Virus record (IMG/VR): IMGVR_UViG_3300030098_006079
DNA from: a virus
Taxonomy: Duplodnaviria > Caudoviricetes
Direction: 5' to 3' (one strand)
Length of the DNA: 64,000 nt
The translations under genes and the position numbers were made by a program. Shown one piece after another: positions 27,061-46,400 of this stretch (positions are counted from its first letter, which is position 1; every line of letters begins with the position of its first letter). The notes below the pieces were generated by a model, which was not told the DNA's origin, did not search any database, and saw only the letters and a program-made list of their open reading frames with translations.

Positions 27061-27713
27061 ATAAGACTATTATTATATGTTGTCCTGGACAGTCATTTAC
27101 AGGTAAGTTTTTAACATCTCTTACATATTTGATTAGACATTTACATAGTAAAGGGTTTAAAGTTTTATTTAGTACAACATTTTCTCGTAACATATATGAA
27201 GTACGTAACAAATGTCTTATGGGTGACCCTAGTAATGGTCCTGATCAACAGTTATTTAACGGTCAAGATTATGATTACATATTATGGCTAGATGATGATA
27301 TTATTTTTACTCCAGAAGATTTTGAAAAGTTATATAAAGAGGATAAAGATGTTATATCAGGTTTGTATTTAATGGCTAATGGAACTCAGTTCGCTGCTGT
27401 TGAAGTGTGGGACGAAGAATTTTTCAAAGAAAACGGGACGTTTGAATTTCTTAATAAACAAGATATATCTCATAGGTTATTACCGTTTAGTGTTGAGTAT
27501 GTTGGTTTTGGATTTTTATTATTTAAAAAAGGAATCTTTGAGCAATTACAATATCCATGGTTTGAGCCTACATTTTTAGAGATAAAAGATTGTATTGATT
27601 TTTCTATGGAGGACGTAACTCTTTGTATAAAATTGCGCAAATTAAATATCGACGTTTATGTACATCCAGATGTTGTTGTAGGTCATCAAAAGGAAGTTGA
27701 GTTAAAAATATGA
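27057..27713 (+). CDS. GT-A (GT2-like) glycosyltransferase
   Basis: YILWLDDDIIF (DxD), VGFGFLL, MEDVTLC, VVGHQK. Confidence 0.75.
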   Translation: MNKTIIICCPGQSFTGKFLTSLTYLIRHLHSKGFKVLFSTTFSRNIYEVRNKCLMGDPSNGPDQQLFNGQDYDYILWLDDDIIFTPEDFEKLYKEDKDVISGLYLMANGTQFAAVEVWDEEFFKENGTFEFLNKQDISHRLLPFSVEYVGFGFLLFKKGIFEQLQYPWFEPTFLEIKDCIDFSMEDVTLCIKLRKLNIDVYVHPDVVVGHQKEVELKI

Positions 27714-28115: not shown

Positions 28116-30056
28116 ATGGCTAGCAAAGATTTCATAGTAAAAAACGGTCTAAGGATAGGAGGTTCATCAGGGACCGGAGGCTTAACAGCCAGTAACGCGA
28201 GTTTTTTAACCAGTCTTAGCGCTGCAGGTATATGCGGTGCTGCAGGAACTGGTTTTGCTACCGGAGCAACTATAGCCCTCGCAGGAGATGTAACTGGTTC
28301 AGTCGACTTAGATACCTTAGGTGGTACTAAAACAATTACAGCGACGATTGCTGCTGATAGTGTTGCTTTAGGTACTGATACTACAGGTAGTTATGTTCAG
28401 TCTTTTGGAGTCAATACTACGTATCAAACACTAACCGGTACTATTGGTACAGGAGAAGGAGCTGACGTAACAGGGTTAGGTTTGTCTGCAACCGGTGTAC
28501 ATGCTGGTTCATATGGTAGTAGTACTGCTATTCCAACAATCACAGTCTTATCTGATGGTCGAATATCCTCTATTAATACAGCTGCTATATCTACAGATTT
28601 AACTATTGCTGCAGATAGCGGTAGTAATGATACAGTATCAATTGGTACTGATACATTAACATTTGCTGGTACATCTAATGAAATCGAAACTACAGTTAGC
28701 GATAATCAGATACAGATTGGTTTACCTAACAATGTCACATTAGGTGGAGATCTACGATTAAATGGTAATTCTATTAATGATAGTAGTGACACAACTGCTA
28801 TACAATTCGATGGTTCTGGTAATACAGAAATTTGTGGTAACTTAACAGTACAAGGAACTCACACTACTCTTAACACATCTGTTACATCTACTACCACAGC
28901 TACAGAGAATAACTTTGTTATTACATCTACAGATACAGGTGCGGACGCAGCTCCAGATTTAAAATTATATCGTAATAGTTCCAGTCCTGCTGATAATGAT
29001 AGAATTGGTAACATTATTTTCACAGGCAGAAATGATAATACACAAGATGTAGATTATGGACAGATTGTAACTCGGATTACTGATGCGTCGGATAGTTCAG
29101 AAGATGCCTATTTAACATTTAAAACAATGGCAGCAGGTACTCTTTCAGATCGACTTACTATTAATAGTGGGTTGGTAGGTATTGGTACTACTGCACCAGG
29201 CCATACATTATCTGTTGCAGGTACTATTAGTGCTTCAGGTGTTATTTATGGTGATGCATTTAACTCCGCGTCAGGTGGATCTACTATAGATTTTAAAGAT
29301 GATGTATTACAACATGGCGCGTTAAGTGTTACAGGCGCTATAAGTGGTAATAGTTCTCTTACTATAAATGGTGATTCTACACTCGGTAATGCATCTGGAG
29401 ATACAATAACTCTTAACGGTGCAACAATAAATATACCAAATGTTGCTGCTGGTACAGATAATACAGTAGTAATATATAACGGGTCAACACTGTTAACTGA
29501 TGAGATTGATTCAAGGGTATGGGGTAGTACATTAATAGATGGTACAGGTAACGCTAATAGAATCGCTAAATTTACTGATGGAGATACAATTGCTGATTCT
29601 TCTATAACAGATGATGGTAATGCTATTATAATTGGTACATCAACAGGTACAACAGCTAATGCTTTTTCAGTATCTGCTACTGCAACAGCAGGTTCTATAC
29701 AGTTTAATAATAATAGAACAGCATATCATTCTGTAAGTTCTACAATTGCTAACTCTGCATCTGGTACTTTAATACGTATTCCTAAAGCTGATTATAGGAC
29801 TAGTAAAATAGTTATATCCGCTAAAGGTACATCTGCATGTACATGTCATGCAGAAGCTACAGAGCTGCTTATTGTACATGATGGTGCAAACGCGGCGTTT
29901 TCAACTGAATTTGCTATTGTACGTACTGGAGATCAAGTCGGTACATATTGTGCAGAAGTTATTGGTGGAGATGTTGAGCTTAGAGCGACAAACGAACTAG
30001 GTGGAAGTGCAACTGCCACATTTGTTGCATCAGTACATCATCTTGGAGAACTATAA
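28116..30056 (+). CDS. Tail fibre/virion structural protein
   Basis: G/S/T/A-rich fibre composition, VGIGTT repeat, modules shared with the 30142 and 43422 proteins. Confidence 0.78.
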   Translation: MASKDFIVKNGLRIGGSSGTGGLTASNASFLTSLSAAGICGAAGTGFATGATIALAGDVTGSVDLDTLGGTKTITATIAADSVALGTDTTGSYVQSFGVNTTYQTLTGTIGTGEGADVTGLGLSATGVHAGSYGSSTAIPTITVLSDGRISSINTAAISTDLTIAADSGSNDTVSIGTDTLTFAGTSNEIETTVSDNQIQIGLPNNVTLGGDLRLNGNSINDSSDTTAIQFDGSGNTEICGNLTVQGTHTTLNTSVTSTTTATENNFVITSTDTGADAAPDLKLYRNSSSPADNDRIGNIIFTGRNDNTQDVDYGQIVTRITDASDSSEDAYLTFKTMAAGTLSDRLTINSGLVGIGTTAPGHTLSVAGTISASGVIYGDAFNSASGGSTIDFKDDVLQHGALSVTGAISGNSSLTINGDSTLGNASGDTITLNGATINIPNVAAGTDNTVVIYNGSTLLTDEIDSRVWGSTLIDGTGNANRIAKFTDGDTIADSSITDDGNAIIIGTSTGTTANAFSVSATATAGSIQFNNNRTAYHSVSSTIANSASGTLIRIPKADYRTSKIVISAKGTSACTCHAEATELLIVHDGANAAFSTEFAIVRTGDQVGTYCAEVIGGDVELRATNELGGSATATFVASVHHLGEL

Positions 30057-30082: not shown

Positions 30083-30107
30083 AAAAGGGCCTTCGGGCCC
30101 TTTTTTT
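30083..30107 (+). terminator. Rho-independent terminator
   Basis: AAAAGGGCC-TTCG-GGCCC plus T7; TAAATA follows at 30110. Confidence 0.9.
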
Positions 30108-30141
30108 ATTAAATAATTACGTAAGTGGATAGTGGAAACTT

Positions 30142-33100
30142 ATGGCAACTAAAAATTTCTTTGTAAACGACGGGCTGAAAGTCAAAGGCAATACGTTACT
30201 TAACGGTAATACGTATACTGATGGAGCTTCAGCGAAACTACATGTTAAGTCAGCTCCTAACGGTACAGGTGCTAACCTAGCGAATGTTAACGGAATCCTA
30301 GTTGAGAATAGCGGTACAGGTAACACCAACTATGCTCTCAAACTCGCTTCAGGCTCCGGAAATATCTTTAATGTAAGTAACGCAGGTAACGTAGGTATTG
30401 GTGTAACTGATGCTAGTTCTATACTTCATATTGTCGGTCCTGGTACTCATCCTACGTCACTTGCTCACTTTGATACTCAATCTATTGCCCGTTTTGAAGC
30501 TGATAGTAGTAATGCCGTAAGTTTATATATTACAGAAGGTGCTGATGGATCTTATTTACAGGTCACAGATGGCACAACAGATTCAAGTACAGCTAAAGAT
30601 TTAAACTTACAACCATTCGGTGGTTGTGTTGGTATAGGTACAACTAATCCAGGTAAGAGTTTACATGTATATACTTCTGATGATATTATAAGTAAGTTTT
30701 CTAGTTCAGATGCTGGTGGTAGAATACTAATTAATGACTCTACTACCAATGCTTATATTAATGCATCTAATGGAGTTGCTTCATTAGGTCAGTGTAATGG
30801 ACTAAACAATAGTAATCTTAATATATTAAGCGCTGGACAAGTTGGTATAGGTACTACAAGTCCTGGTAATCTTTTAGAATTATATAGCTCAGCACCTGTA
30901 TTATCAATTAAGGATGGAGGGGCATATGGAACGAATGCTACCTCCTATATAGATTTTAAAGATAGTTCTTCAGTAATGTCAAGAGTAGGTGTTGCTGGTG
31001 TCGCTGGTACATTAGATGTTGATAATTTAAAAGCAAATAGTATTAGACTTCGTACTAATGGTAGTACTCAAGTTACAGTTACTAGCGCTGGTAATGTCGG
31101 TATAGGTACAACTGACCCGAATTACAGCTTAGACGTTACTTCGTCAGGTAGTCAGACTATAAGAGTAAAGTCTACAGATAATCATGCAGCTGTTAGAATT
31201 GATAGGCCATCAGATAGCTATGATAGTAATTTAATGTTTCAAACAAACGGAACTACTAAATGGCGATTAGGTCAAGGCGTAGTTACGGCAGGTGATAATT
31301 ATTTAGCTATATATGATGACATTAATGATGCTGGTCATACCACGTTTAAGGCTGGTGGTAGTGTTGGTATAGGAACAGCTGAACCAAATGAGAAGCTTAC
31401 AGTCTCAGGTAATATTAGTGCAAGTGGTATAGTATATGCTGATGCATTTAATTCAGTAACAGGCGGTACTGCAATAGATTTTAATGACAATATTGACTTA
31501 GCAGGTAATCTTACATTGAGTGGTTATGTTAGCGCTAATGGTGGTTATTGTAGTGATGAAAATGCTAATGCTAAGTTCGGTACATGTGCGTTAAACGGTC
31601 TAACAACAGGTCTGTATAACGTCGCAATAGGTACAAGCGCTCTGCGTTCAAATACTAGCGGTTGTGATAACGCTAGTGTAGGTCAAGATGCTCTATATGC
31701 TAATACAACCGGTTGCAAAAATGTAGCGTTAGGTCGAGCTGCGTTAAGGTATAATACGACTGGTAAATGGAATTCAGCAGTTGGACATACAGCTTTGTTT
31801 TGTACTACAACTGGTTGTAAAAATACTGCTAGCGGTGCATATGCTTTGCATTGTAATACAACTGGTATGGAAAACGCAGGGCATGGTTATGCTGCATTAC
31901 TTTGTAACACAACAGCTAATTATAACACTGCAGTTGGTGCTTGTTCTTTATATGCTAATACTACCGGTGCTAATAATACTGCAGTTGGTTTTAAGTCTTT
32001 AGTAACTAACACAACAGGTTGTAGAAATACAGCTAGTGGTAACTATTCTTTAAACTTTAACACAACAGGCTTTAATAATACTGCTCATGGTTTTCAAGCT
32101 TTACTTAATAATACAACTGCGAAAGGTAATACTTCTACAGGTTATTATTCTTTAAGAGCTAACACAACAGGTTGTCATAATACTGCTAGTGGTTATTACG
32201 CTTTGTACAGTAATACAACAGCTCATTATAACACAGCAGTTGGTGCGTGTGCTTTATTTGCTAACACAACAGCTGATTACAATACAGCATTTGGTTCTCA
32301 ATCGTTAAAAGCTAACACAACCGGTGGAGGTAACTTAGCACTTGGTTATGCTGCTTTAACAAATAACACAACAGCTAGTTATAACACTGCAGTTGGTTAT
32401 GCTGCTTTATTTGATAACACAACAGGTGGTTTGAATACTGCAGTAGGTAGACAAGCATTAGAAAATAATACAACCGGTGGTAAAAACACCGCTAGTGGTT
32501 ACTTCGCTTTAGGTTCTAATACAACTGGTTCTTGTAATGATGCTTTCGGTTGGAACGCTTTATTAACTAACACTACTGGTGGTTATAATACAGCGATGGG
32601 TCTTTGGGCCTTAAAACTTAACACTACTGGCTGTAAAAATGCCTCTGTAGGTTCACATTCTTTACAATCTAACACAGAGGGTTGTGTTAATACAGCAATA
32701 GGTTATCAATCTTTACAAGCTAACACAACCGCGTCTTATAATACAGCAGTCGGTAGTTGTGCCTTGTTTGATAATACAACTGGTCATTCAAATACTGCAA
32801 GTGGATTCTATTCATTAGCTAACAATACTACTGGTTGTAAAAACGTTGCTGCGGGTGCATGGTCGTTGGGTAAAAATACGTCTGGTTGCTCTAATACTGC
32901 TAGTGGATATACCTCGTTGTGGGAGAATACAACAGGTTATGGTAATGCAGCGCATGGTACGAAGTCTCTTTGTAAAAATACTACAGGTTATAGTAATATT
33001 GCTGTAGGTTCTCAAGCTCTTACAACTAACACAACTGGTCATTCAAATACTGCTAGTGGTTACTTCGCTTTAAAATGTAACACAACAGGTGGTAAAAACA

Positions 33101-36100
33101 CAGCAGTAGGTTTATGTGCTTTACATTCTAATACTACAGCTGAATACAATACTGGTATTGGTTGGCGGGCTTTACTAACTAACACAACTGGTTGTAGAAA
33201 TACTGCTACTGGTATGTATGCTTTAACCAATAACTCAACAGGTGGTTGTAATACTGCTAGTGGTAGTTATTCGTTATATGCTAATACATGTGGTAGTTGG
33301 AACGCAGCAGTTGGTTATAAGGCTCTAAAATCTAATACAACAGCTAGTTTTAATACAGCAGTTGGTACATGTTCTTTACATTCTAATATATCTGGTTCTC
33401 GTGGTACCGCAGTCGGTTATCTGGCAGCAGTAAATAACACTTGTGGTCATCATACTACTGCAATAGGTAATCAAGTTTTATATTCTAATACAACAGGTCA
33501 TAGTAATACTGGTAGTGGTAGTTATGCTTTGTACAAAAACACAACTGGTGCATGTAACCAGGCATATGGTACTCTTTCCTTGTATCATAATACTACTGGT
33601 TGTTTAAACTCGGGTTTTGGTAGATCTACTTTATGTTCCAACACAACAGGTAGTTTCAACACCGCGATAGGATCCTGCGCTTTACCTAAAAATACTACTG
33701 CTTCTGATAATGTTGCTGTTGGTTATGCAGCGTTAAAAGTTAATATAATAGGCGCCAGAAATACAGCAGTTGGTAACTGTGCTTTATGTGCTAATGTATG
33801 TGGCAACGGTAACGCAGCATTTGGTCATAAAGCTATGAGAGATACCACAAGCGGTATTTATAATACTGCCAGCGGTGCATTTTCATTACATAATAACACA
33901 ACAGGTTCAACTAATGCTGCTCATGGTAATCTTGCTTTGTACAGTAACACAACAGGAGCTAATAATACTGCAAGTGGTACAAAGTCGTTATATGATAATA
34001 CAACTGGTTGTCTGAATACTGCAATTGGTTATGAGACTTTGTATGAGAATACAACATCTAATTATAATACTGCAGTTGGTGCATGTTCTTTATATGCTAA
34101 TACAACAGGAGCTAGTTTAGTCGCAGTTGGTTATAACGCTTTAAAATCAAGCACATGCGCTAATTGTAGTACAGCAGTTGGTCATCAAGCATTAATGGAT
34201 CAAACTACAGGAGGTGGTAATACTGCGGTAGGTCAAGCAGCAGGTGAAAATGTTACTACAGGTGTAGCGAATGTTATTGTAGGTGTGAAAGCTCTTTGTA
34301 CAGCAACAGTAGCTCATTATAATACAGCTATAGGTTATCAAGCACAAAGACAAACTACTACCGGGCATTGTAATATTGCAATTGGTTATAATAGCTTACT
34401 TAATAACACAACTGCTTGTAATAATGTTGGAGTTGGTTTAGATGCTCTATACACGGGTACAACTGGTAGTCACAATACTGCTATAGGTACAAGAACATTA
34501 TATGCTAATACCACCGGCTCTAAAAATGTAGCCTTAGGTTTTAGAACTTTGTGTTCTAACACTGAAGGTTTAAACAATGTTGCTTTAGGTGCGTTTGTTC
34601 TAGATGCAAACACTACAGGTCGTTGTAATACCGCTAGTGGTTATGCAGCAATGTATAATAACACAACGGGTTGTCGTAATACTGCAGTCGGTGATTGTGC
34701 TCTACATGATAATACAACTGGTCACGATAATGTTGCTATTGGTAGACACGCTTTAGTTAACAGCACAACAGCTGGTGCTAACACAGCAGTAGGTTCATGC
34801 GCATTACTTAGTAATACCACAGGAGCATCTCTTGTAGGTATTGGTTATCTAGCACTTGCAGCTAATACTACAGGAATTAGAAATACAGCTTTAGGAGTAT
34901 ATTCTCAAAGATATACTAGTACAGGCAACTTTAATACCTCTAGTGGTTATATGTCGTTGTGCTCTAACTCTACTGGTTGTAACAATACAGCTTTTGGTGA
35001 TCTAGCTTTAAGAACTAATACAACAGCTAGTTATGCTACTGCAGTAGGTGGCTGCGCTTTACATAGTAACACTACAGGGTCATATAATACCGCTGTTGGT
35101 TTTCATGCTGCATCCTCTAATACAACAGCATTTGGTCAAACAGCTATAGGTTACCATGCATTAATTTGTAACCAGACTGGTTGCCGTAATACTGCTTTAG
35201 GTGTTTTCGCATTGTGTTGTAACGTATCTGGTTGTGATAATACAGCAAGTGGTGTATATGCTCTATATAAAAATACAGGGTCAAATAACTCTGCATATGG
35301 TTTCGCATCATTAATAACTAACAGCTCTGGTGAGTATAACACAGCAGTTGGTGGTTGTTCTTTATATGCTAATACTACTTCTTGTAACAATACTGGTATT
35401 GGTTGGATGTCCTTAAAGAGTAATACAACCGGAGCTAGTAATACAGGAGTAGGAGCTAATACATTACAGAGCAATACTACTGGTGGTAATAATGTTGCTA
35501 TAGGTGACTGTGCTTTACTTTGCAATACAACTGGTGGTCACAATATTGGTATTGGTCATGGTGCTTTATGTGATGCAACGACAGCGGGTGGTAATGTTGC
35601 GATCGGTGGTGTTGCTATGGAGAACACTACAACAGGAGAATATAATATTGCTCAAGGTAAGTATGCTCTTAATGCTAATACAACAGGTTGTCGAAATGTA
35701 GGTTTAGGTTACGCCGCTTTAATTGCTAACACAACTGCTAGTAAAAATACCGCGGTTGGTACTTGTGCTATGTATGATACCTCAACAGGTATTCTTAATA
35801 CTGCAGTTGGAAATGAAACTTTAGTAAACAACACTACAGGAAGCTACAGTACAGCAGTTGGTGCTTGTGCTTTGAAGACTAATACTACCTCTAGTTATAA
35901 CGACGCTTTTGGTATGGGTGCGTTGTGTACTAATAACGGTGGTACCCATAATGTAGCGGTAGGTGGTGTTGCTTTACGATTTAATACTACTGGTTGCAGA
36001 AACACAGCAAGTGGTCATTACGTGATGGGTAAGAACACTACAGGTTGTATGAATGTAGCTTACGGTTATTATGCATTAGTATGTAATACAACAGCTAATA

Positions 36101-39100
36101 GTAATACAGCGGTTGGTGCATGTTCTTTATATGCTAATACAACAGGTGCTAATAATACTGCTAGTGGTTATAGATCTTTAGCAAATAATACAACAGGTAG
36201 TGATAACACCGCCGTTGGGTGGTCTGCTATAAAGTCTAATACAACAGGTAGTCATAATGCTGCATTAGGTTATCAAAGTATGCAAGCTACCACAACAGGC
36301 CATTCGAATGCTGCGATTGGTAAACAAACTTTATATGCTAATACATGCGGACAAAGAAACACAGCAAGTGGTTATAGAGCTTTATTTAATAACACTTCCG
36401 GTTCTGGTTCTGTCGCACTTGGTGCATGTGCTTTATGTGGTAATACAACTGCTGGTAATAATATTGCTATAGGTAGAGGTGCTATGAGAAACAATACTAC
36501 TGGTAGTATTAATAGTGCAAGTGGTTATAAATCCTTGTACGCTAACACAACCGGTACACACAATGCCGTTCATGGTTATGAAGCTATGTGTAAGAATACA
36601 ACCGGTGGTTATAATACTGCAATCGGTACATGCGCTTTATTTAATAATACTGGTAATGATAATGTTGCATTAGGATATGCTGCTGGTATTAATAATACTT
36701 CGGGTTGTAATAATGTATTTTTAGGAACAAACTCTTGTGCATGTGATGCTACTTTATGTAATGTTGTTGCTATTGGTAAGTCAGCAGTTGCAACAGCTAC
36801 TAATCAAATCGCATTAGGTGGCTCGAGTCATACAGTAGACTTAGCTGCTTGTAAGTTAACAATTGGTGGTAGCGGTGGTACTGCAGGTTATGTAATGTGT
36901 ACTGATGGTTCTGGTAATGTTGGTTGGACGTCAATCGCTGGTGCTTCTGGAGGTGTTACTTGTGTTGCTACAGCCAATACTCATGTTGGCGATGGTTCAA
37001 TGTCTAATGTAGTTGCTCTTTCAGCTGTACATAACACAGCATATGGTTATCAATCTTTAAAAGAGCTAACATGCGGAGATTATAATACAGCCATTGGGTC
37101 ATGTTCTTTAGGTAAAACAACTACTGGGCTTAGAAATACAGCAAGTGGTTATGCAGCTTTATGGAAAAATACAACTGGTTGTGAAAATACAGCGAGTGGT
37201 ATATATGCTTTAATGAACAATACAACTGCTTCAGAGAATACAGCAGTTGGTAATAGAGCGCTTCTCACTAATAGTACAGGTTGTGCTAATACAGCAGTTG
37301 GTTCAAGCGCTCTTAGAGTCAATACAACAGGTTTAAGACATACGGCGTTTGGTGTAGAGGCTTTAAAGAACAATACAACAGGTAGCTATAATAATGCTCA
37401 AGGTTATGGTGCTCTGTTTACTAACACAACAGGTCAAACCAACGATGCATTTGGTTATGCTGCTCTGTACGCTAATACAACTGGAGGATGTAATGCCGCA
37501 TTTGGTCATGCACCCTTAGCTAAGAATACAACTGGTAATCAAAACACTGCTGTTGGTAATCTTGCTTTATGCTCTAATACAACTGGTAATTATAGTACAG
37601 CGGTAGGTACAAAATCATTATATACAAACACAACTGGTAACAACCAAGCATTTGGTTCATTTTCATTAAAGAAAAACACAACTGGTACTCTTAATAATGC
37701 ATTTGGTTATGCAGCAATGGAAGAGAATACAACAGGTGATTGTAATACTGCAATGGGTCATGCTGTATTAAACAAAAATACAACAGGTTGTAATAATACT
37801 GCCCTTGGCGTACAAGCTTTATACTGTAATACAACAGGTTGTAATAATACTGCAATTGGACGTTCGGCCTTAGAATGTCACACTTCAGGTAAGAATAATA
37901 CAGCCATGGGAACCTGGGCTTTATATAAAACTACAACCGGGCAAAGAAACATTGCTATAGGTAATAGTTCTTTAGAAAAAAATACATGTGGTTGTTGGAA
38001 TGTTGCAATCGGTTCTCGTTCTTTATATTGTAACACAACAGCTTGTGGTAACACAGCAGTCGGTGGTTGTACTTTACACACTAATTCAACAGGAACTCAG
38101 AACACAGCAAGTGGTTATGTAGCTTTAGCAAAAAACACAACTGGCGCTAATAACACAGCTAGTGGTTATAGTGCCTTACAAAAAAATACAACTGGTCATT
38201 CAAATACTGCAGCTGGTTCATGCGCATTACTTAATAACACAACTGGTTGTTTTAATAATGCTTTCGGTAAGAGAGCCTTACGATCTAACACAACAGGTAA
38301 TCATAATCTTGCTATAGGTAATGATGCTCTTTATGGAAACACAACAGGTAATTATAATACTGCTAGTGGTTATTATGCATTAGGACTTGGAGCAGCTGGT
38401 TGTGAAAATGCCGCGTTTGGTTATAAAGCAGGTATGGGTGTTAATGGTGGTAAGCATAACACTGCTGTTGGTTACGAAGCCTTATTAGCTACAGGAACAA
38501 AATGTCTTAATACTGCTATTGGTCATAAGTCTCTGACATCCCTCACAACTGGCTGTAATAATACTGGTGTTGGTTATGGTTCATTATGTAATGCTACAAC
38601 TGCTTGTGATAATACTGCGCTAGGATATGGAGCGTTTGGTGCTCTTACAACTGGTTGTAGAAACGTAGCTGTCGGTCATGGTGCTGGTAATGCAACTACC
38701 ACCGGAGCGTGCAACTTCTTTGGTGGTCATGGTGCTGGGGAGGACAACACTACCGGTCATAGTAATGTAGCAATTGGCAGACAAGCTATGAATAAAAATA
38801 CAACTGCTGCTTATAATACAGTAGTTGGTGCATGTGCTCTTTTCTGTAATACGACAACTGGTATGGCGATGGAAGCATTTGGTTTTCGAGCACTACATAG
38901 TAACACAACAGGTTCTTGTAATACGGGTATAGGTTTTTGTGCTTTATATAGTAATACAAGCGGTTGTTTTAATACCGCGAGTGGTTACAGATCGCTAGCA
39001 ACTAACACTACAGGATGTAACAACGCGTCATATGGTTCATTTACTTTAGCGGCTAATGAATGTGGTTGTTATAATACAGCAATTGGCTTTAACTCGATGA

Positions 39101-42100
39101 AGTGTAATGCATCGGGTAATCAAAACACCGCGAGTGGCTCGTATTCTTTAATGTGTACCTCCTCTGGTAATTATAATACAGCTTTTGGTTATTCAGCTGC
39201 CCTTAACAATACTACTGGAGGATTTAATACTGCAGTAGGTAGAACGTCGCTGTATAATAATACAACAGGTATTGCTAACACAGCTATAGGTATGGAAGCA
39301 TTGTACTGTAATACAACTGCTTCTTATAATGTAGCAGTAGGTTATTGCACATTAAGGACTAATAGTACTGGAGCTAAGAATACTGCCGTTGGTCAAAGCG
39401 CATTAAAATCTAGTACAACTTCCAACTACAACGCCGCATTTGGTTATCAAACATTATTCTCTAATACAACTGGTATTCAAAATACTGCAAGTGGTTCATA
39501 TTCAATGTATGATAATACTACAGGTAGTTATAATGTTGCGTATGGTCTGAATTCATTAGCTAATAACATTACAGGTTGTGCTAATACAGCTATTGGTAAC
39601 AAGACTTTAGAGACTAATACTGCTGGTCATCGTAACGTTGCAATAGGTTGTCTCGCAGGTACGACTATGACTGGTAGTGATAATACTTTCATTGGTACTG
39701 AAGCAGGAAGATATACGACATCTAGTAAGTGTCATGTAGCGATAGGTCGTAACGCAATGAGACATAATTCGACTGGTTGTCGTAATAATGTTATTGGTGC
39801 TTGGGCTTTATATAGAAACACTACAGGAACAAATAATACTGCTAGCGGTTATTATTCTCTTAATTGTAATACAACTGGTAGTAATAATAATGCTGTAGGT
39901 TTGTTTGCTTTACAATGTAGCTGTACAGCTAGTAATAATAACGCAGTAGGTTATGCAGCTTTAATGAAAAATAACGCTGCAGATAATAATGCGTTTGGCT
40001 ACGGTGCTCTACAATATAATACAACTGGTACAAAGAACACCGCTATGGGTTGTCGAGTTATGAATACTAATACAGTTGGTTCTTGTAATACAGCAATGGG
40101 TAGTGAAGCTCTATTTTATAATGAATGTGGTATTTTTAATTCGGCGTTTGGTATAGCTGGTATGTCTTCAAATACAACAGGTTGTCATAATGTTGCAGTT
40201 GGTGGTTGTGCTTTAGCTGGTAACACTACAGCGAATGATAATGTTGCAGTTGGCTTTAAAACGTTATTAGTTTCAACAACTGGTTGTGAAAACGTTGCAA
40301 TTGGTCAGCGCACATTGTGTAGTAATACTACCGGATCAACAAACACAGCTGTCGGTCAACAAGCTCTCGTAAAAAATACTACAGCTCACGACAATACAGC
40401 TGTTGGTAAGAGTAGTATGCATGACAATACAACAGGTACTCTTAATACTGCAGTAGGTAGAAACTCTCTAAATTCTAATACAACAGCTTCTTATAACACA
40501 GCAATTGGTGGTTGTGCGTTATTGACTAATACTACTGGTGCTGCTAATACAGCAAATGGTTTTCGTGCACTAGCATCTAACACTACTGCTTCAGAGAATA
40601 CTGCAAGTGGTTATGCTGCTATGCAATTAAACACAACTGGTTGTGAAAATAGTGCATTTGGTAGAAAAGCAATGTGCTGCAATACAACAGGATTTAATAA
40701 TACAGCAGTTGGAGTAGTTGCGTTAGCTAATAACTCTACCGGTTGTTATAATACTGCAGTAGGTAATAGGGCGATGCTCCTTACTACGTCTAGCTTAAAT
40801 ACAGCAGTTGGTTATGTTGCTTTATGTAAAAATACAACTGGTAATAGTCAGGTCGCTGTTGGAGCATGTGCTTTACATACTAATACAACAGGAGGTGATA
40901 ATGTTGCAATTGGTGTAGAGTCGCTAAGATTTAACACCACCGGTGCTAGTAATGTAGTAGTTGGTAAAGATGCTGCACAATGTAATACGACGGCTAATAA
41001 TAATGTAGCAATAGGTTTGAAAGCTAATGCGCTTAATAAAACCGGATTCGGTAACGTAAGTGTAGGTGCCTGCGCAGCGTATAATTCCATATGTGGTAAA
41101 AACACTGCTATTGGTACAAGTGCTTTAGTTACTAATACAACCGGTGTTTGTAATGTAGTAGTTGGTTGGGATGCAGGTTATAGCACTACTACTGGTGGGT
41201 ACAACGTATTCATGGGCTCAAGAGCTGGTTTTAGTAATACTACAGGTGCTTCAAATACATTTATTGGTAAGGATTCTGGTTACTATACAACAACTGCTAG
41301 TCATAACACTGCTGTTGGTAATGGATCTCTTCTTGTTAACTCAACTGGTAGTTATAATACTGCAAGTGGTAGTTATGCTATGTATGCAACCACAACTGGG
41401 GCACAAAATACAGCGACGGGTTATGCAGCTATGTATTGTAATACAACTGGTAATTACAACGTCGCCGTCGGTCAGAGTTCCATGTACAAAAATGTATCCG
41501 GTAGTTGGAATACAGCGTTAGGTTTTGACAGCATGTCCTGCAACGTAGGTGGTTGTTATAACACAGCGTTAGGTAGAAAAGCAATGTGCTGCAATACATA
41601 TGGTAACTGTAACGCCGCAGGCGGTAATCATGCTTTAAGCTCTAACACAACTGGTTGTGAGAATGTAGCATTTGGTTATGCACCGATGTTGAACAATACA
41701 ACAGGTAAGTGGAATACTGCAATGGGTAGTTTTTCTTTATATAATAACACAACTGCTTGTTACAACACATCGGTTGGTAGACAATCTCTTTTTAGTACTA
41801 CAACAGGTAAACAAAATACAGCTATAGGTAATAGATCTTTATATAGTAACACAACAGCTAGTTATAATACAGGTCTTGGAGATCATGCTGGTTTTGGTAT
41901 TACAAGCGGTACAAGAAACACTACTGTAGGTCATGCGTCGATGCAATGTACATCTACTGGTGATGATAACGTTGCAGTAGGTCATTATTCCTTACATTGT
42001 AACACAACAGCTAACCAGAACGTTGCAGTCGGTGCTTGTACATTAATGAACAACTTAACAGGATCTAATAATACTGCAGTTGGTCATGGTGCTTTACATT

Positions 42101-43338
42101 CTAATACTACCGCGGCTAATAACGTTGCTGTAGGTCAATGCGCTTTGAGAAATAACTGCTGTAGTGGTGCAAAAGAAAATGTCGCGGTAGGTGCAACAGC
42201 TTTGCTTGCTAACTGTTCTGGTTGTAGAAATAATGCTCTTGGTACATCCGCTTTACAATGTAATACAAGCGGTGTTAGAAACCAAGCATTTGGTGGTTGG
42301 GCGTTACGTAGAAATACAACAGGTAGTAACAATACTGCTAGTGGTTATTATTCTCTTAATTGTAATACTGGTGGTAGTCAGAATACAGCTTATGGACATT
42401 ATACTCTTAGAAGTAATGTTACTGGAAATTGTAACACTGCGATGGGTTCATGTGCTGGTTGTGGTACGACAACAGGATCCGTGGTAGCAATAGGCGCTGC
42501 GGCTCTTAAAGACAATACAAGCGGAGTTAACTTGGCGGTCGGTTATTGTGCTGCTGGTAGAACCACCTCAGGTGGTCAGAATACTGTTGTGGGTACTCGC
42601 GCCATGGAATTGAATACAACTGGTGGTTGTAACACAGTAATGGGTGACCACGCCATGCATTATAATACAGGTAATTATAATACAGCCATGGGTCGTTTAG
42701 CTGGTTATTGTAGCATTGGTACAGAAAACGTTTATATAGGTTATAAAACTGCATGTATATCTACTAGCGCTAATTACAACACATTTGTTGGATCAGGAGC
42801 TGCTGCTAATAATACTGTTGGAGATTGTCATACTAGTCTTGGAGCAGGTACAGGACCAACTGCTTGTAACTTAACTAACACTATTTCAATTGGTTACAAT
42901 GTAACGGTTGCAGCTAACAACTATACATGCATTGGTAACAGTGCAACGGTCTGCTCAGTTGTCCCGAACATTTCTACTAACTGCTTTACGACTGGTGCGT
43001 TCATGGAAAGTAACCTCAGCTCCTTTGAGATAAAGGGCAATCCTACAGGAACGGTATTGATATGGAAAGATGGTAAAGCTATACCTTGTGAAGAAGAATA
43101 CGATGTAACAGTATTAGGTGTAGCTGCAGATAATAATGAATCTCCTATTATAATTGGAGCAGAGCCAGTGTTAGTAACTGGACCAATTAACGAAGGAGAC
43201 TTTATTGTTACATCTGACAAGAGAGGACATGGAAAGAAAGGATTTAGTAACAACTTGTTTGGTAAAGTTATTGCTCAGGCATTAGAGTCTGGAGATGGTG
43301 ATAGCTATACTATCAAGGCTATGATTAGGAAAATGTAA
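30142..43338 (+). CDS. Giant 4398-aa tail fibre/adhesin with 17-aa repeats and chaperone-like C-terminus
   Basis: VGIGTT repeats, two long arrays of NTTGxxNTAxGxxALxx, C-terminal VLGVA...PVLVTGPINEGDFIVTS...GKVIAQALE domain. Confidence 0.88.
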   Translation: MATKNFFVNDGLKVKGNTLLNGNTYTDGASAKLHVKSAPNGTGANLANVNGILVENSGTGNTNYALKLASGSGNIFNVSNAGNVGIGVTDASSILHIVGPGTHPTSLAHFDTQSIARFEADSSNAVSLYITEGADGSYLQVTDGTTDSSTAKDLNLQPFGGCVGIGTTNPGKSLHVYTSDDIISKFSSSDAGGRILINDSTTNAYINASNGVASLGQCNGLNNSNLNILSAGQVGIGTTSPGNLLELYSSAPVLSIKDGGAYGTNATSYIDFKDSSSVMSRVGVAGVAGTLDVDNLKANSIRLRTNGSTQVTVTSAGNVGIGTTDPNYSLDVTSSGSQTIRVKSTDNHAAVRIDRPSDSYDSNLMFQTNGTTKWRLGQGVVTAGDNYLAIYDDINDAGHTTFKAGGSVGIGTAEPNEKLTVSGNISASGIVYADAFNSVTGGTAIDFNDNIDLAGNLTLSGYVSANGGYCSDENANAKFGTCALNGLTTGLYNVAIGTSALRSNTSGCDNASVGQDALYANTTGCKNVALGRAALRYNTTGKWNSAVGHTALFCTTTGCKNTASGAYALHCNTTGMENAGHGYAALLCNTTANYNTAVGACSLYANTTGANNTAVGFKSLVTNTTGCRNTASGNYSLNFNTTGFNNTAHGFQALLNNTTAKGNTSTGYYSLRANTTGCHNTASGYYALYSNTTAHYNTAVGACALFANTTADYNTAFGSQSLKANTTGGGNLALGYAALTNNTTASYNTAVGYAALFDNTTGGLNTAVGRQALENNTTGGKNTASGYFALGSNTTGSCNDAFGWNALLTNTTGGYNTAMGLWALKLNTTGCKNASVGSHSLQSNTEGCVNTAIGYQSLQANTTASYNTAVGSCALFDNTTGHSNTASGFYSLANNTTGCKNVAAGAWSLGKNTSGCSNTASGYTSLWENTTGYGNAAHGTKSLCKNTTGYSNIAVGSQALTTNTTGHSNTASGYFALKCNTTGGKNTAVGLCALHSNTTAEYNTGIGWRALLTNTTGCRNTATGMYALTNNSTGGCNTASGSYSLYANTCGSWNAAVGYKALKSNTTASFNTAVGTCSLHSNISGSRGTAVGYLAAVNNTCGHHTTAIGNQVLYSNTTGHSNTGSGSYALYKNTTGACNQAYGTLSLYHNTTGCLNSGFGRSTLCSNTTGSFNTAIGSCALPKNTTASDNVAVGYAALKVNIIGARNTAVGNCALCANVCGNGNAAFGHKAMRDTTSGIYNTASGAFSLHNNTTGSTNAAHGNLALYSNTTGANNTASGTKSLYDNTTGCLNTAIGYETLYENTTSNYNTAVGACSLYANTTGASLVAVGYNALKSSTCANCSTAVGHQALMDQTTGGGNTAVGQAAGENVTTGVANVIVGVKALCTATVAHYNTAIGYQAQRQTTTGHCNIAIGYNSLLNNTTACNNVGVGLDALYTGTTGSHNTAIGTRTLYANTTGSKNVALGFRTLCSNTEGLNNVALGAFVLDANTTGRCNTASGYAAMYNNTTGCRNTAVGDCALHDNTTGHDNVAIGRHALVNSTTAGANTAVGSCALLSNTTGASLVGIGYLALAANTTGIRNTALGVYSQRYTSTGNFNTSSGYMSLCSNSTGCNNTAFGDLALRTNTTASYATAVGGCALHSNTTGSYNTAVGFHAASSNTTAFGQTAIGYHALICNQTGCRNTALGVFALCCNVSGCDNTASGVYALYKNTGSNNSAYGFASLITNSSGEYNTAVGGCSLYANTTSCNNTGIGWMSLKSNTTGASNTGVGANTLQSNTTGGNNVAIGDCALLCNTTGGHNIGIGHGALCDATTAGGNVAIGGVAMENTTTGEYNIAQGKYALNANTTGCRNVGLGYAALIANTTASKNTAVGTCAMYDTSTGILNTAVGNETLVNNTTGSYSTAVGACALKTNTTSSYNDAFGMGALCTNNGGTHNVAVGGVALRFNTTGCRNTASGHYVMGKNTTGCMNVAYGYYALVCNTTANSNTAVGACSLYANTTGANNTASGYRSLANNTTGSDNTAVGWSAIKSNTTGSHNAALGYQSMQATTTGHSNAAIGKQTLYANTCGQRNTASGYRALFNNTSGSGSVALGACALCGNTTAGNNIAIGRGAMRNNTTGSINSASGYKSLYANTTGTHNAVHGYEAMCKNTTGGYNTAIGTCALFNNTGNDNVALGYAAGINNTSGCNNVFLGTNSCACDATLCNVVAIGKSAVATATNQIALGGSSHTVDLAACKLTIGGSGGTAGYVMCTDGSGNVGWTSIAGASGGVTCVATANTHVGDGSMSNVVALSAVHNTAYGYQSLKELTCGDYNTAIGSCSLGKTTTGLRNTASGYAALWKNTTGCENTASGIYALMNNTTASENTAVGNRALLTNSTGCANTAVGSSALRVNTTGLRHTAFGVEALKNNTTGSYNNAQGYGALFTNTTGQTNDAFGYAALYANTTGGCNAAFGHAPLAKNTTGNQNTAVGNLALCSNTTGNYSTAVGTKSLYTNTTGNNQAFGSFSLKKNTTGTLNNAFGYAAMEENTTGDCNTAMGHAVLNKNTTGCNNTALGVQALYCNTTGCNNTAIGRSALECHTSGKNNTAMGTWALYKTTTGQRNIAIGNSSLEKNTCGCWNVAIGSRSLYCNTTACGNTAVGGCTLHTNSTGTQNTASGYVALAKNTTGANNTASGYSALQKNTTGHSNTAAGSCALLNNTTGCFNNAFGKRALRSNTTGNHNLAIGNDALYGNTTGNYNTASGYYALGLGAAGCENAAFGYKAGMGVNGGKHNTAVGYEALLATGTKCLNTAIGHKSLTSLTTGCNNTGVGYGSLCNATTACDNTALGYGAFGALTTGCRNVAVGHGAGNATTTGACNFFGGHGAGEDNTTGHSNVAIGRQAMNKNTTAAYNTVVGACALFCNTTTGMAMEAFGFRALHSNTTGSCNTGIGFCALYSNTSGCFNTASGYRSLATNTTGCNNASYGSFTLAANECGCYNTAIGFNSMKCNASGNQNTASGSYSLMCTSSGNYNTAFGYSAALNNTTGGFNTAVGRTSLYNNTTGIANTAIGMEALYCNTTASYNVAVGYCTLRTNSTGAKNTAVGQSALKSSTTSNYNAAFGYQTLFSNTTGIQNTASGSYSMYDNTTGSYNVAYGLNSLANNITGCANTAIGNKTLETNTAGHRNVAIGCLAGTTMTGSDNTFIGTEAGRYTTSSKCHVAIGRNAMRHNSTGCRNNVIGAWALYRNTTGTNNTASGYYSLNCNTTGSNNNAVGLFALQCSCTASNNNAVGYAALMKNNAADNNAFGYGALQYNTTGTKNTAMGCRVMNTNTVGSCNTAMGSEALFYNECGIFNSAFGIAGMSSNTTGCHNVAVGGCALAGNTTANDNVAVGFKTLLVSTTGCENVAIGQRTLCSNTTGSTNTAVGQQALVKNTTAHDNTAVGKSSMHDNTTGTLNTAVGRNSLNSNTTASYNTAIGGCALLTNTTGAANTANGFRALASNTTASENTASGYAAMQLNTTGCENSAFGRKAMCCNTTGFNNTAVGVVALANNSTGCYNTAVGNRAMLLTTSSLNTAVGYVALCKNTTGNSQVAVGACALHTNTTGGDNVAIGVESLRFNTTGASNVVVGKDAAQCNTTANNNVAIGLKANALNKTGFGNVSVGACAAYNSICGKNTAIGTSALVTNTTGVCNVVVGWDAGYSTTTGGYNVFMGSRAGFSNTTGASNTFIGKDSGYYTTTASHNTAVGNGSLLVNSTGSYNTASGSYAMYATTTGAQNTATGYAAMYCNTTGNYNVAVGQSSMYKNVSGSWNTALGFDSMSCNVGGCYNTALGRKAMCCNTYGNCNAAGGNHALSSNTTGCENVAFGYAPMLNNTTGKWNTAMGSFSLYNNTTACYNTSVGRQSLFSTTTGKQNTAIGNRSLYSNTTASYNTGLGDHAGFGITSGTRNTTVGHASMQCTSTGDDNVAVGHYSLHCNTTANQNVAVGACTLMNNLTGSNNTAVGHGALHSNTTAANNVAVGQCALRNNCCSGAKENVAVGATALLANCSGCRNNALGTSALQCNTSGVRNQAFGGWALRRNTTGSNNTASGYYSLNCNTGGSQNTAYGHYTLRSNVTGNCNTAMGSCAGCGTTTGSVVAIGAAALKDNTSGVNLAVGYCAAGRTTSGGQNTVVGTRAMELNTTGGCNTVMGDHAMHYNTGNYNTAMGRLAGYCSIGTENVYIGYKTACISTSANYNTFVGSGAAANNTVGDCHTSLGAGTGPTACNLTNTISIGYNVTVAANNYTCIGNSATVCSVVPNISTNCFTTGAFMESNLSSFEIKGNPTGTVLIWKDGKAIPCEEEYDVTVLGVAADNNESPIIIGAEPVLVTGPINEGDFIVTSDKRGHGKKGFSNNLFGKVIAQALESGDGDSYTIKAMIRKM
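31560..36720 (+). repeat. Coding tandem repeat array 1, 51-nt/17-aa period (about 100 units)
   Basis: e.g. NTTGCKNVALGRAALRY-NTTGKWNSAVGHTALFC; codons diverged; boundaries approximate. Confidence 0.85.
37030..42900 (+). repeat. Coding tandem repeat array 2, same 17-aa period (about 115 units)
   Basis: Same consensus after a non-repeat hinge; boundaries approximate. Confidence 0.85.
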
Positions 43339-43421: not shown

Positions 43422-46400
43422 ATGGCGAAAATTGTTATAACTAACGGTACTATTCACTCAGATGATGATTTTAACTTAACATCTGGATCGGATGCGAATA
43501 CACGTAATAACTTCCGGATATGTAAGCAAAAAGATTCACATACCCGATTACGTTCATTATCATCCTTTAGAATAAAAACGCACGATTTACTCAATACTGG
43601 TAATGCAGAGATTTGTGGAAATCTTACTGTACATGGTACCTGTACTGTTCTTAATACTACCTTATGTTTAACAGATACAACTGCGACTGATAACTTTACT
43701 CTTGTATCTACTGATGCGGGTGCGTCTGCTGCTCCTGATTTTAAACTGTATAGAAACTCAGCCAGCCCAGCTAATAACGATTCTTTAGGCCATATTAAAT
43801 TTAGTGGTAAGGATGCTGCCGGCAATGAAACTGAGTATGCAAGTATAAAGGGTTGTATCCAATCTGTTGGTTCTGGTAGTGAGTGTGGCGCAATGTTAGG
43901 TAATGTTGTTATTAATGGGTCATCAACTGATATAATCAGAGTTGATTATGCAGGTTTGTGGACTCAAAACAACAAAAATTTGTATCTTAATGGAAGTGGT
44001 CAACTTCGAAATTACGGGGCTTGTTTAAGACTATCTACAGGAGGAGGAGACTATAAAATAACATTCGAGCCAGACTCTACTGTTAAAATGTGTTTACATG
44101 GAGGAGAGTTAACAGTTTGTAATAAAGTTTATACACCAATATTAAGAGCTACTGCTTGTACATTTTATGGTGCTTGTGGTTCTAGTAAATTATCCTCTGA
44201 TGGAGATAATATGCGCCATACTACACAGTATGGTTGTATTAATTTTGGTCCAGGTAATGCTAGTTATGCTCATATAACAACTGATAGAAGTCAATTTTAT
44301 TTTAATAAACAGCTTGTAGTCGATTCTGGCGTTGTAATGTCTTACAATGAAGATCTTAAACTTTCACGTGCTGGTAATAGTGTAAATGCTATTTATATAT
44401 GTAGCGCTCTAACAACTAGTTGTAATCCAACTAAACTATTTTCACAACAAGGACATACCATACCGCAGACTGGTAATGCTGTGTGTTGGTTGAAATTTGG
44501 ATCTTTATGTATACCGCAACACGGTTATAAGATGCGCATGAAAGTTGTTGCGAGTAATGGTTACGGTTCTAGTACAACTGACACTACTCAAGAAACAACA
44601 CTTTTATTTCAAACTGCAAACACCGGTGAAGCTAGTTCCGGTTCAAGTGTGTGTGCGTGTGTACATTCATTTATAGAAGGTAGTACGAAACGTGAATCAG
44701 ATGCTCCTTACTGTTTTATTGTACACGAAGTTAATTCCGCATTATTTGAAATATTTGGTAAATTTAACACTTATACAGGAACCGGTAGTTATTATACAAT
44801 AGAATCTGGACCTACTACATGTTGGATTGCATGTAACTCTTTTGTAGATCCTGATTCTTGTTCAGGTTCTTGTATAGTATCTATACCTAATAGAGGTACT
44901 ATATTTTGTACATCTTCCTCTACTACATGTATATGTGGTTCTGCTATTGTTCAGGGCGATATATGCATGAATAACAATTCGCGTGGTTATAAATTAGGTA
45001 CTGATACCGGTGGTTCTGGTAGTAGAGCTTTTCTAGCATTAGATTCTGACGGTTCTGATGGTATTGGAGCTGGTTCTGATTATTTCTTCGTTGCTAATGA
45101 TGGTTCTGATACCAGATTTTATAATGAAGGCCCGGAACATATAAGACTATGTGGTAGTTCGTGTGTTGCTTTTTGTAAACCGATAGCAGTTCACTGTTGC
45201 GCAAGAATAGCTACTATTAGAAACTTTACCAATACTACATACATGTGTCTTTGTGGTGGTTGTTGTTTGATAGGTGGTATACAGTTTAAAGACTGTCAAG
45301 GTTGTGACCGTGGCTGGGTGTATCATGATGGTGCTGCTAATTTTGGTTTATTATCATGTGCTGGATCTTGGGCTATTAAAATAACAGGTACTAGTAATAT
45401 ACAAAGCTCTTACACTCATTGTTTTTCCGGAAATATTGGTCTTGCTGGTGGATCTGCTAGTCGGGTGTGTATAGCTGGTAAGCGCGCTATAGAAGGTAAT
45501 AGTTGTATATTATCTTTAGGAGAAGATTGGGATTGTATATGTTTACGAGCTACTTGTACATATTCTACAGGAAACATATGTACTACTGCATGTTTACAAT
45601 CATCTGTGGTTTGTTCTACAGGTTGTGTAAAAACTCCGTTGATACAAGCGCAAGGCGGTGGAAGTTGTTTTGGTGCGCCTGCAGGTTGCGATGACTGGGA
45701 ATGTAGTCCTATTAGCATTAGAGAAAGAGGAGCAGTTTCTTCTAATCAAAGTCATGATTGTTATGCTCCTAACTTAAACTTTCATTGGGCTGGTAGAGTT
45801 TCAAACTCTTTGTATATGGCGGCGAACGGTCACTTAAAGTTTGGTTCTTATAATAGCAGCGGTTGTCCTGATGGTCCGAACGGTGTTTTCTGGGCTGGTA
45901 CTCTGTGTGGTAATACTTGTGTAAAATCTCCTATTGTTTGTGGTACAACATGTTTAGCTACTAATGTTATTTCTAGTAGTGGTAGTGCACCATCTGATTA
46001 CGGTGCATTGGCGATTGAAGGAGCCAAAGGAGGTTATGGTGGTGTTCATTTCTGTGGGTATACATTTATGGCAGCATCAGATTGCGGTGGCGGTGGTATT
46101 TATAACGATACTCACAATCAATGGGCTATATGGAATGGTGCAAATGCTGCTACTTACATTTATCATGCTGGTAATGCGAAATTACATACTATCACCAATG
46201 GTGTACGAGTATGCAAAGAATCAAACGCCGGGTATATAGACATTTGCCCATCAGGTGGTTGGGGTCATCTTATAACTAGTAACAATTGTTTCTACATGAA
46301 CGTACCATTGATGGTCAATGGAGGTAGTATTGGTTCTTATGACGAAGATTTAACGCTACAAAGAGGTTATTCCCTTACTGCTGCTGAAAGTATAAAGATT

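Follow-up and report, generated by a model that had tools for sequence, protein, structure and literature searches.

What could a virus do with a single protein of 4398 amino acids (aa), most of which is one short motif repeated some two hundred times? The gene for such a protein lies in a 64,000-nucleotide (nt) stretch of DNA (hereafter the window) from IMG/VR record IMGVR_UViG_3300030098_006079, a virus of the Caudoviricetes (Duplodnaviria). An earlier note on the window, made by a model from the letters and a list of translated open reading frames (ORFs), had described one 13.2-kb ORF of 4398 aa and read its product as a fibre. We find that its product is probably a virion fibre, built as a homotrimer by an uncultured marine phage, and most likely a long tail fibre. 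Coordinates of the features discussed are collected in Table 1.

The giant ORF is a single open frame with an ATG start (30142-43338, plus strand, 4398 aa), as the earlier note had it. Lag 17 dominates the residue autocorrelation of the protein (0.37; other lags give 0.05-0.11), its harmonics appear at 34 and 51, and an iterated position matrix places 207 strict, non-overlapping 17-residue units between aa 487 and aa 4240. This span covers 3754 of the 4398 aa (85%), and the total rises to ~215-217 repeats once shortened units (15-16 aa) are counted; repeat detection thus bears out the 200-220 repeats of the form NTTGxxNTAxGxxALxx, over some 85% of the protein, that the earlier note had put forward. 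The consensus is N1 T2 T3 G4 x x N7 T8 A9 (V/I)10 G11 x x A14 L15 x x, with Gly11 invariant (207/207 units). The register is broken 13 times: eight units are short (seven have 16 aa and one has 15), the register slips by 1-2 aa at three places, and there are two inserts, of 71 and 32 aa. Subtypes of the repeat exist (e.g. Ala4-Tyr6-Val10-Cys13), and a 153-nt period is picked up locally by Tandem Repeats Finder (31904-32501). A global higher-order super-period was considered and rejected, being absent both from the repeat subtypes and from identity at the variable positions. Compared as DNA, the copies share 60-80% identity. No exact repeat longer than 26 nt was found; one of that length occurs twice where 0 matches are expected by chance, and it is the repeat that the earlier note had quoted from near 40660 and 41570.

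The gene is read as that of a phage fibre because of its PHROG matches, its tblastn hits in tail fibre genes, the baseplate hub and endolysin encoded in the window, and its place in a block of four fibre-like genes, all of which agrees with the fibre call of the earlier note. The protein matches PHROG 23837, 6002 (virion structural protein) and 4636 (tail spike) at E = 0 over 29-46 stretches each, matches that are driven by the repeat. A tblastn search with its first 700 aa reached 76 phage records, with 38-54% identity over the first repeats; the genes beneath the repeat matches carry a tail fibre, tail structural or tail spike annotation in Roseobacter phages CRP-1 and CRP-7, Pelagibacter phages HTVC111P and HTVC112P, P-SSM2 (Prochlorococcus), S-CAM4 and Escherichia coli phage P817. 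By the same position matrix, strict copies number 30 in PSSM2_298 of P-SSM2, 22 in CRP-1 gp37 and 10 in the P817 tail fibre, and in 3/3 of these the array runs straight into Peptidase_S74. That the window is phage DNA is evident from a gp5-like baseplate hub with lysozyme, a ribonucleotide reductase, a Lon-like protease and an endolysin; GTP cyclohydrolase, thymidylate kinase and helicase genes are also present. Four fibre-like genes follow one another (646, 4398, 1241 and 1595 aa), the giant gene being second.

The repeat is not confined to phages. Among 1.84 billion cluster representatives, a profile of 14 repeats hit 73,602 with a cut-off of E = 0.001, and 20,826 with one of E = 1e-30. When long proteins alone (2418-7697 aa) were scanned by a word-indexed method, 375 relatives came up, many of them chromosomal (Limnobacter, Bdellovibrionales, Patescibacteria) and most ending in S74, under source names such as 'tail fiber domain-containing', 'beta strand repeat-containing' and 'trimeric autotransporter adhesin'. 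The giant protein scores 3881 bits against the profile and its two full-length relatives 3776-3789, against 1891 for the best library protein, though the profile was built from these three, whose scores are thereby favoured. The largest strict repeat counts in other proteins examined are 117 and 134. Judged by these matches, the 17-residue repeat itself is already known, and is one of the commonest fibre shafts of phages and bacterial surface fibres; what stands out in the giant protein is the length of the array, which is up to twice that of any other examined. Also unusual are a cysteine content of 3.9% at fixed surface positions and the beta-tulip at the C-terminus. The protein is an unusually long, cysteine-rich member of a very common, structurally unsolved shaft family, and the basic picture, that of a phage fibre of known general type, is unchanged.

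No usable Pfam or NCBIfam hit came from the full-length sequence or from its parts searched singly (N-terminus, 408-aa repeat segment, 71-aa insert, C-terminus), with Pfam run at E up to 0.1 for the former and up to 1 for the repeat segment, and the repeat, as single sequence or as profile, found no match in PDB at E up to 10. A repeat with 73,602 matches thus had neither a Pfam or NCBIfam model nor a solved structure in these searches. The giant gene and its relatives should be good material for solving the fold and measuring its stiffness, because they are the most extreme and most regular examples.

The gene has relatives that span the entire array. Scanning viral contigs with the N-terminal 486 aa returned 12 related loci, several of which stop inside the gene. 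On a 119-kb contig (G001), a frame of 4360 open codons encodes a 4357-aa homologue with 182 strict repeats, whose C-terminal 199 aa are 79% identical to those of the window protein; on a 40-kb contig (G002), a frame of 5474 open codons encodes one of 5464 aa with 211 strict repeats. Both are complete from start to stop, on contigs from other samples, with collinear anchor islands. In a third (G003) the frame is open for at least 2846 aa. These relatives bear on the possibility that short-read mis-assembly across repeats inflated or scrambled the array. Several related contigs do end inside the gene, as is typical of assembly breaks in repeats, but short reads place uniquely among copies so diverged (60-80% alike in DNA, no exact repeat found above 26 nt), and full-length homologues with collinear anchors come from other samples. 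Because three independent metagenome contigs hold full or near-full homologues, an artefactual array is very unlikely. One 9-kb contig from another sample (L005, IMGVR_UViG_3300030090_003928) is 100% identical over aa 1-486 and ends where the array begins; it probably comes from the same phage, its assembly having broken off at the repeats.

Aligned with its two full-length homologues, the giant gene is a collinear mosaic in which islands of 85-96% nucleotide identity, among them both gene ends, the 71-aa insert and several internal blocks, are separated by sequence of ~60% identity, the level of any two repeats. Between anchors, the number of repeats differs by hundreds of residues among the three genes. 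One shaft segment, aa 2058-2140 (36313-36561, 83 aa), is 90% identical in DNA to G002 (L019), while the C-terminal domains of these two genes are just 74% identical in DNA and their N-termini are barely alignable; on this ground the alignment points to recent exchange of the segment between distinct phages. The earlier view of the array as old and maintained holds insofar as the DNA copies have diverged and the array is kept in relatives, but it sits less well with the mosaic of high-identity islands and the widely differing repeat numbers. The mosaic shows how such arrays alter length and swap segments, which bears on the evolution of host range in uncultured marine phages. Among cultured phages, megablast against 50,697 phage records found no match to the fibre block.

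The best evidence that the giant protein is a homotrimer comes from its N-terminus. The capping-loop motif V-G-I-G-T-x-x-P-x-x-x-L occurs five times within aa 80-440, four of the five modules forming a DNA repeat family (D13), and aa 298-427 match PDB 8ojn (E = 2.3e-6). The latter is the tip of the Bdellovibrio MAT fibre Bd3182, an intertwined trimeric beta-helix with capping loops at its edges, for which the motif was defined as V-G-G/N-pi-x-x-P-x-x-x-L and which is structurally like the stalks of T5 pb1 and K1F endosialidase (PMC10769870). From these likenesses aa 1-486 are predicted to form an intertwined trimeric beta-helix. This would be the virion-attaching end, and the 93% identity of aa 1-150 to the G001 homologue fits a conserved attachment end. 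Direct reading of the N-terminus reveals no evident signal peptide. The 71-aa insert that divides the repeats is likewise conserved in both full-length homologues (69-86% identity to G001), and its sole PDB match, to a trimeric autotransporter adhesin (TAA) fragment (2yo3), is non-significant (E = 0.08). It is a possible knee or hinge between the two arrays.

For the shaft, the first 14 repeats were modelled as a monomer with AlphaFold2 (AF2) from an alignment of 29 in-register segments from three homologues. The model is a solenoid with 14 strand sets in 14 repeats, one turn per unit (predicted local distance difference test, pLDDT, 76; predicted TM-score 0.73). Small solenoids are known with 12-19 residues per turn, and the pattern of conserved residues would fit a narrow, self-closing coil. 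Foldseek of the model against PDB gave just generic solenoids (leucine-rich repeats, lyases; E above 0.009), and exhaustive structural alignment gave single-chain beta-helices at Z 12-17 (tailspikes, the phi29 gp12 body, TibA, pertactin, Vag8, EtpA, Ag43). TAA heads, to which the earlier note had likened the repeats, align at Z 12.9 with a root-mean-square deviation (rmsd) of 8.1 A and 24% identity (UspA1, 3pr7), and at Z 11.6, 7.6 A and 26% (BpaC, 7o23). These are the highest identities among the structural matches, but the deviations are large, PDB gave no sequence or profile match, and Hep_Hag (PF05658) matches neither the whole giant protein (E up to 0.1) nor the 408-aa repeat segment (E up to 1). 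The likeness is real but shallow. A tail fibre region of a pelagiphage was labelled YadA-like in 2014 (PMC3909814).

If one repeat is one layer, the textbook rise of 0.48 nm per solenoid turn would give ~48 nm for the ~101 turns of array I and ~56 nm for the ~116 turns of array II, a modelled shaft of ~100 nm. The N-terminal helix would perhaps add 15-20 nm, scaling from Bd3182 (6 nm per 135 aa; PMC10769870), and an intertwined geometry could give up to twice the ~100 nm length. The length of ~100 nm put forward earlier therefore agrees with the AF2 solenoid of one turn per repeat; that the rod is rigid is doubtful, because of the 13 register breaks and the conserved 71-aa insert, a possible hinge.

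The C-terminus was modelled from aa 4124-4398 with 55 homologues, and the AF2 model is confident just for aa 4284-4398. The top structural match of this domain is the capsid decoration protein of HFTV1 (Z 11.7, VIA-align). Others are the C-terminal fragment of phi29 gp12 (3gqh), at Z 10.3 with 17% identity and an rmsd of 2.4 A over 96 residues, the gp8.5 head fibre of phi29 with its base (Z 9.2-9.4), and the decoration proteins of Sf11 (Z 9.7), XM1 (Z 8.7), TW1 (Z 8.2), FCWL1, BB1, Pam3 and E217. All matches at Z >= 5 are capsid decoration proteins, the gp8.5 base or the gp12 auto-chaperone fragment. These share the beta-tulip, a fold that was defined for decoration proteins, that forms capsid-bound trimers, and whose only non-viral example is MoeA (PMC7602432). 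MoeA matches the domain weakly. Foldseek searches of PDB and BFVD agree on the assignment. Among the predicted viral structures of BFVD, the best matches (E 1e-8 to 1e-5) are long proteins, some named 'preneck appendage protein', 'tail protein' or 'tail fiber protein', and they outrank small DUF2190 or cement-like proteins. In all of 120 homologues, which belong to proteins of 287-1938 aa with many unrelated N-termini and shafts, the domain ends within 2 residues of the C-terminus.

Sequence families contribute little here. Within the beta-tulip family, Peptidase_G2 (PF11962) is matched by 3/56 members (best E = 0.0064) and Phage_cement_2 (PF09956) by 1/56 (E = 1.9e-5), and neither is matched by the giant protein itself; a language-model look-alike search of the domain also touched Peptidase_G2. 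There is no Pfam hit to S74 (PF13884) in the whole giant protein or its last 199 aa, and no match of the C-terminus to PDB sequences. Going by the model, aa 4284-4398 are likely a trimerisation or auto-chaperone module, which we favour over capsid or receptor binding because the domain holds the place of S74 in sister fibres and is highly conserved rather than variable. Exchanging the usual S74 for a beta-tulip would be a testable trait in the way marine phages assemble and harden their very long, receptor-seeking fibres.

The second unusual trait is cysteine. The giant protein has 173 Cys (3.9%), of which 164 lie within repeats, almost all at variable positions 5, 6, 13, 16 and 17, and exactly one falls in each of 98/207 repeats. 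The same repeat positions carry Cys in both homologues. The two downstream fibre genes are richer still (6.8% in the 1241-aa and 6.6% in the 1595-aa product; 6.1% and 7.5% in the G001 counterparts), against 0-2.3% in nearly all other ORFs of the window, and more than 2% Cys is rare among examined proteins with the repeat (11/150 and 3/89). The loading is thus conserved at the same repeat positions in three homologues and recurs in two neighbouring fibre genes. A regular disulfide ladder was considered and is unsupported, because Cys positions show no convincing pairing pattern; co-occurrence signals within and between neighbouring repeats are marginal, and none would survive multiple testing. 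Disulfide-linked fibres have a precedent in cyanophage Pam3 (PMC9942802), and the cysteines here probably stabilise or cross-link the fibre after its release from the cell.

Put together, these parts suggest the following fibre. The N-terminal 486 aa, an intertwined trimeric beta-helix with capping loops, would carry the virion-attaching end and lead into a shaft of ~215 turns of narrow beta-solenoid, one 17-residue repeat per turn. Within each repeat, Asn would form the ladders (positions 1 and 7), Gly would make the turns (4 and 11), and Ala, Thr and Leu would fill a small core (2, 3, 8, 9, 14 and 15). Positions 5, 6, 12, 13, 16 and 17, rich in Tyr, Cys, Ser and Asn, would face the solvent, where the variable residues probably make many weak contacts with host surface glycans and the cysteines probably stabilise or cross-link the fibre outside the cell. 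Three such rods may pack side by side, as in a TAA head or tailspike, giving two rods of ~48 and ~56 nm joined by the 71-aa insert as a possible knee. The last 115 aa would stand in for S74: folding of the trimer probably starts at this C-terminal domain, which may later be removed, as the end of phi29 gp12 is by ATP-dependent auto-cleavage. A bolder version holds that one 450-kDa chain makes the whole long tail fibre, knee and both half-fibres included, and is the longest regular beta-solenoid seen so far (~215 turns, at least 100 nm). Its solvent face would be deliberately loaded with Cys, and the adjacent transferase and sulfotransferase might decorate its more than 200 N-x-S/T sites (227 in the giant protein). 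The result would be a covalently hardened rod under a coat of glycans, and co-infecting phages would exchange its repeat blocks, altering their contacts with hosts. Taken as a whole this version is unlikely, if worth stating.

Several points weigh against a tail fibre with a shaft of three bundled solenoids. Its presence in the virion and its location on the tail are read here from genes. Confidence in the AF2 shaft model is moderate (pLDDT is 54-69 in the four other models), and a monomer model cannot separate three solenoids from an intertwined helix. Neither shaft nor C-terminus has a Pfam, NCBIfam or PDB sequence match, the cysteines do not pair convincingly, the beta-tulip fold is equally typical of capsid-binding proteins, and S74, known as a chaperone of intertwined triple beta-helices, ends the related fibres that share this repeat. 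This last point, together with the homology of the N-terminal modules to an intertwined trimeric beta-helix, speaks for the same fibre with an intertwined triple beta-helix as its shaft, as in endosialidase, T5 pb1 and MAT stalks; its length could then reach ~200 nm. Against such a shaft, a 17-residue unit that has Asn ladders and Gly turns, two of each, suits a coil closing on itself, and AF2 folds every repeat in that way; TAA heads, whose sequence pattern comes nearest, consist of three separate rolls in a bundle. We hold the intertwined shaft to be the less likely geometry by a good way, while taking it seriously.

The C-terminal fold raises a different alternative, a head (capsid) fibre in which the beta-tulip binds three-fold or quasi-three-fold sites of the capsid, with the shaft pointing outward and the N-terminus distal. 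The HFTV1 protein as top match, many other capsid cement proteins and the gp8.5 base at Z 7-10, the family member that reaches Phage_cement_2, and the capsid-bound trimers formed by this fold (PMC7602432) would all suit it. Yet the gp8.5 base is N-terminal, whereas the beta-tulip here is always at the extreme C-terminus and sits on many unrelated N-termini, as is usual for a folding or tip module, attachment being usually N-terminal; BFVD scores long fibre and appendage proteins above small cement-like ones; in cultured phages, the homologous shafts belong to tail fibres and have a cleaved chaperone at that end; and no second beta-tulip gene was found in the 119-kb relative. A head fibre is therefore quite improbable. 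Less probable still is a fibre that is displayed on the infected cell and is no part of the virion, for example one that blocks superinfection or alters adhesion, like the cellular MAT or 'tail fiber domain-containing' proteins with this repeat. The same repeat is indeed common in chromosomal genes of Limnobacter, Bdellovibrionales and Patescibacteria, but the N-terminus has no evident signal peptide, the gene lies inside a late structural block, and its phage homologues are annotated as virion or tail proteins. A long tail fibre remains the reading that we prefer.

Compared with known systems, the giant protein shares its 17-residue repeat with PSSM2_298 (1094 aa, among annotated tail fibre genes), CRP-1 gp37 (607 aa, annotated tail structural protein) and the P817 fibre (833 aa, annotated tail fibre). 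The arrays of these cultured-phage fibres are 7-20x shorter, with 0.2-1.1% Cys versus 3.9%, and are followed by Peptidase_S74 instead of a beta-tulip. PSSM2_298 (L021, 8053-11337) also has a plastocyanin/azurin-type copper-binding match (PF00127, E = 9e-5) at aa 768-832; it lies inside the array (aa 174-937) and is below threshold as a separate stretch. The Bdellovibrio MAT fibres (Bd3182, 8ojn) have modules that match the giant N-terminus by sequence, including the capping-loop motif, and follow the same trimeric fibre logic of a conserved base, a long repeat shaft and exchangeable ends. They are exported cellular proteins of ~1000 aa with the matching modules at the tip, whereas the giant protein has them at its N-terminal end, on a far longer shaft, and lacks S74. 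In phi29 gp12 (3gq7, 3gqh, 3suc; Peptidase_G2) a beta-helical body is likewise followed by a C-terminal beta-tulip-type domain. The body aligns with the giant shaft at Z 16.6, a generic match; gp12 is an 854-aa protein with an enzyme-like beta-helix, unlike the regular 17-residue coil of the giant protein, which has no PF11962 match.

TAA heads (YadA-like; UspA1 3pr7, BpaC 7o23) build a narrow, left-handed parallel beta-roll in a trimer from short Asn/Gly/Ala-rich repeats, as the giant shaft may, with a repeat of 14-16 residues instead of 17. TAAs continue into a neck, a coiled-coil stalk and a C-terminal YadA-type membrane anchor; the giant protein has none of these, has no Pfam anchor match and ends in the beta-tulip. 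AIDA-I and TibA (4q1q) are regular short-repeat, single-chain beta-helices too (shaft model at Z 15.9, rmsd 5.0 A), but with 19-residue repeats, monomeric, and secreted via their own barrel, whereas the giant protein has a period of 17 and no barrel domain was found in it. TibA is heavily heptosylated. As in the T4 long tail fibre (gp34-gp37), the giant fibre would have two rods and a knee, on a contractile-tailed phage. Its estimated total is ~120 nm, versus ~145 nm for the T4 long tail fibre. T4 uses four proteins with non-solenoid folds where the giant fibre would use one chain for both rods, and no sequence relation between the two was found.

Table 1. Features of the giant fibre gene and its surroundings (positions in the window)
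Feature	Coordinates	Strand	Remarks
Upstream 646-aa fibre-like gene	28116..30056	+	shares start motif and one capping-loop module with giant gene (translations compared)
G+C-rich hairpin then T run, terminator-like	30083..30112	+	between 646-aa gene and giant gene
Giant fibre gene	30142..43338	+	4398 aa plus stop; PHROG 23837, 6002, 4636 matches at E = 0
N-terminal region	30142..31599	+	aa 1-486; conserved start MATKNFFVNDGL; five capping-loop modules
Repeat array I	31600..36744	+	aa 487-2201, ~101 units of 17 aa
Non-repeat 71-aa insert	36745..36957	+	aa 2202-2272; motif G-Y-V-M-C-T-D-G-S-G-N-V-G-W; splits repeats into two arrays
Repeat array II	36958..42861	+	aa 2273-4240, ~115-116 units; more register breaks, 32-aa insert near its end
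26-nt exact DNA repeat, copy 1	40660..40685	+	exact match
26-nt exact DNA repeat, copy 2	41572..41597	+	exact match
Irregular linker	42862..42990	+	aa 4241-4283; low model confidence, pLDDT < 50
C-terminal beta-tulip domain (AF2 model)	42991..43335	+	aa 4284-4398 (115 aa); AF2 pLDDT 72-96
Two downstream fibre-like genes, 1241 and 1595 aa	43422..51941	+	43422-47147 and 47154-51941

The other members of the fibre block gave no family matches, whether the 646-aa upstream protein or the 1241- and 1595-aa downstream proteins (for these two, in Pfam, PHROG and NCBIfam). The latter two share a segment with the 646-aa protein, and the pair also follows the giant gene in G001. The hairpin before the giant gene looks terminator-like from its sequence. 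The T4 late promoter TATAAATA was considered as a control element and rejected; its frequency in the window is not above chance, and none lies just upstream of the giant gene. The T4 major capsid family PF07068 has no match in the 119-kb relative, but control genomes gave none either.

Behind the fibre block, the gene at 51978-53045 has no sequence match to any glycosyltransferase family or solved structure (Pfam, NCBIfam, PDB sequence), and a sulfotransferase follows at 53045-53863 (Pfam Sulfotransfer_3, E = 1e-13). Just upstream of the block lie two adjacent paralogues (PHROG 1574, 26476-27713), the second weakly glycosyltransferase-like. Farther away, the Lon-like ATP-dependent protease is full length at 13530-15911 (PHROG 4871, E = 5e-182).

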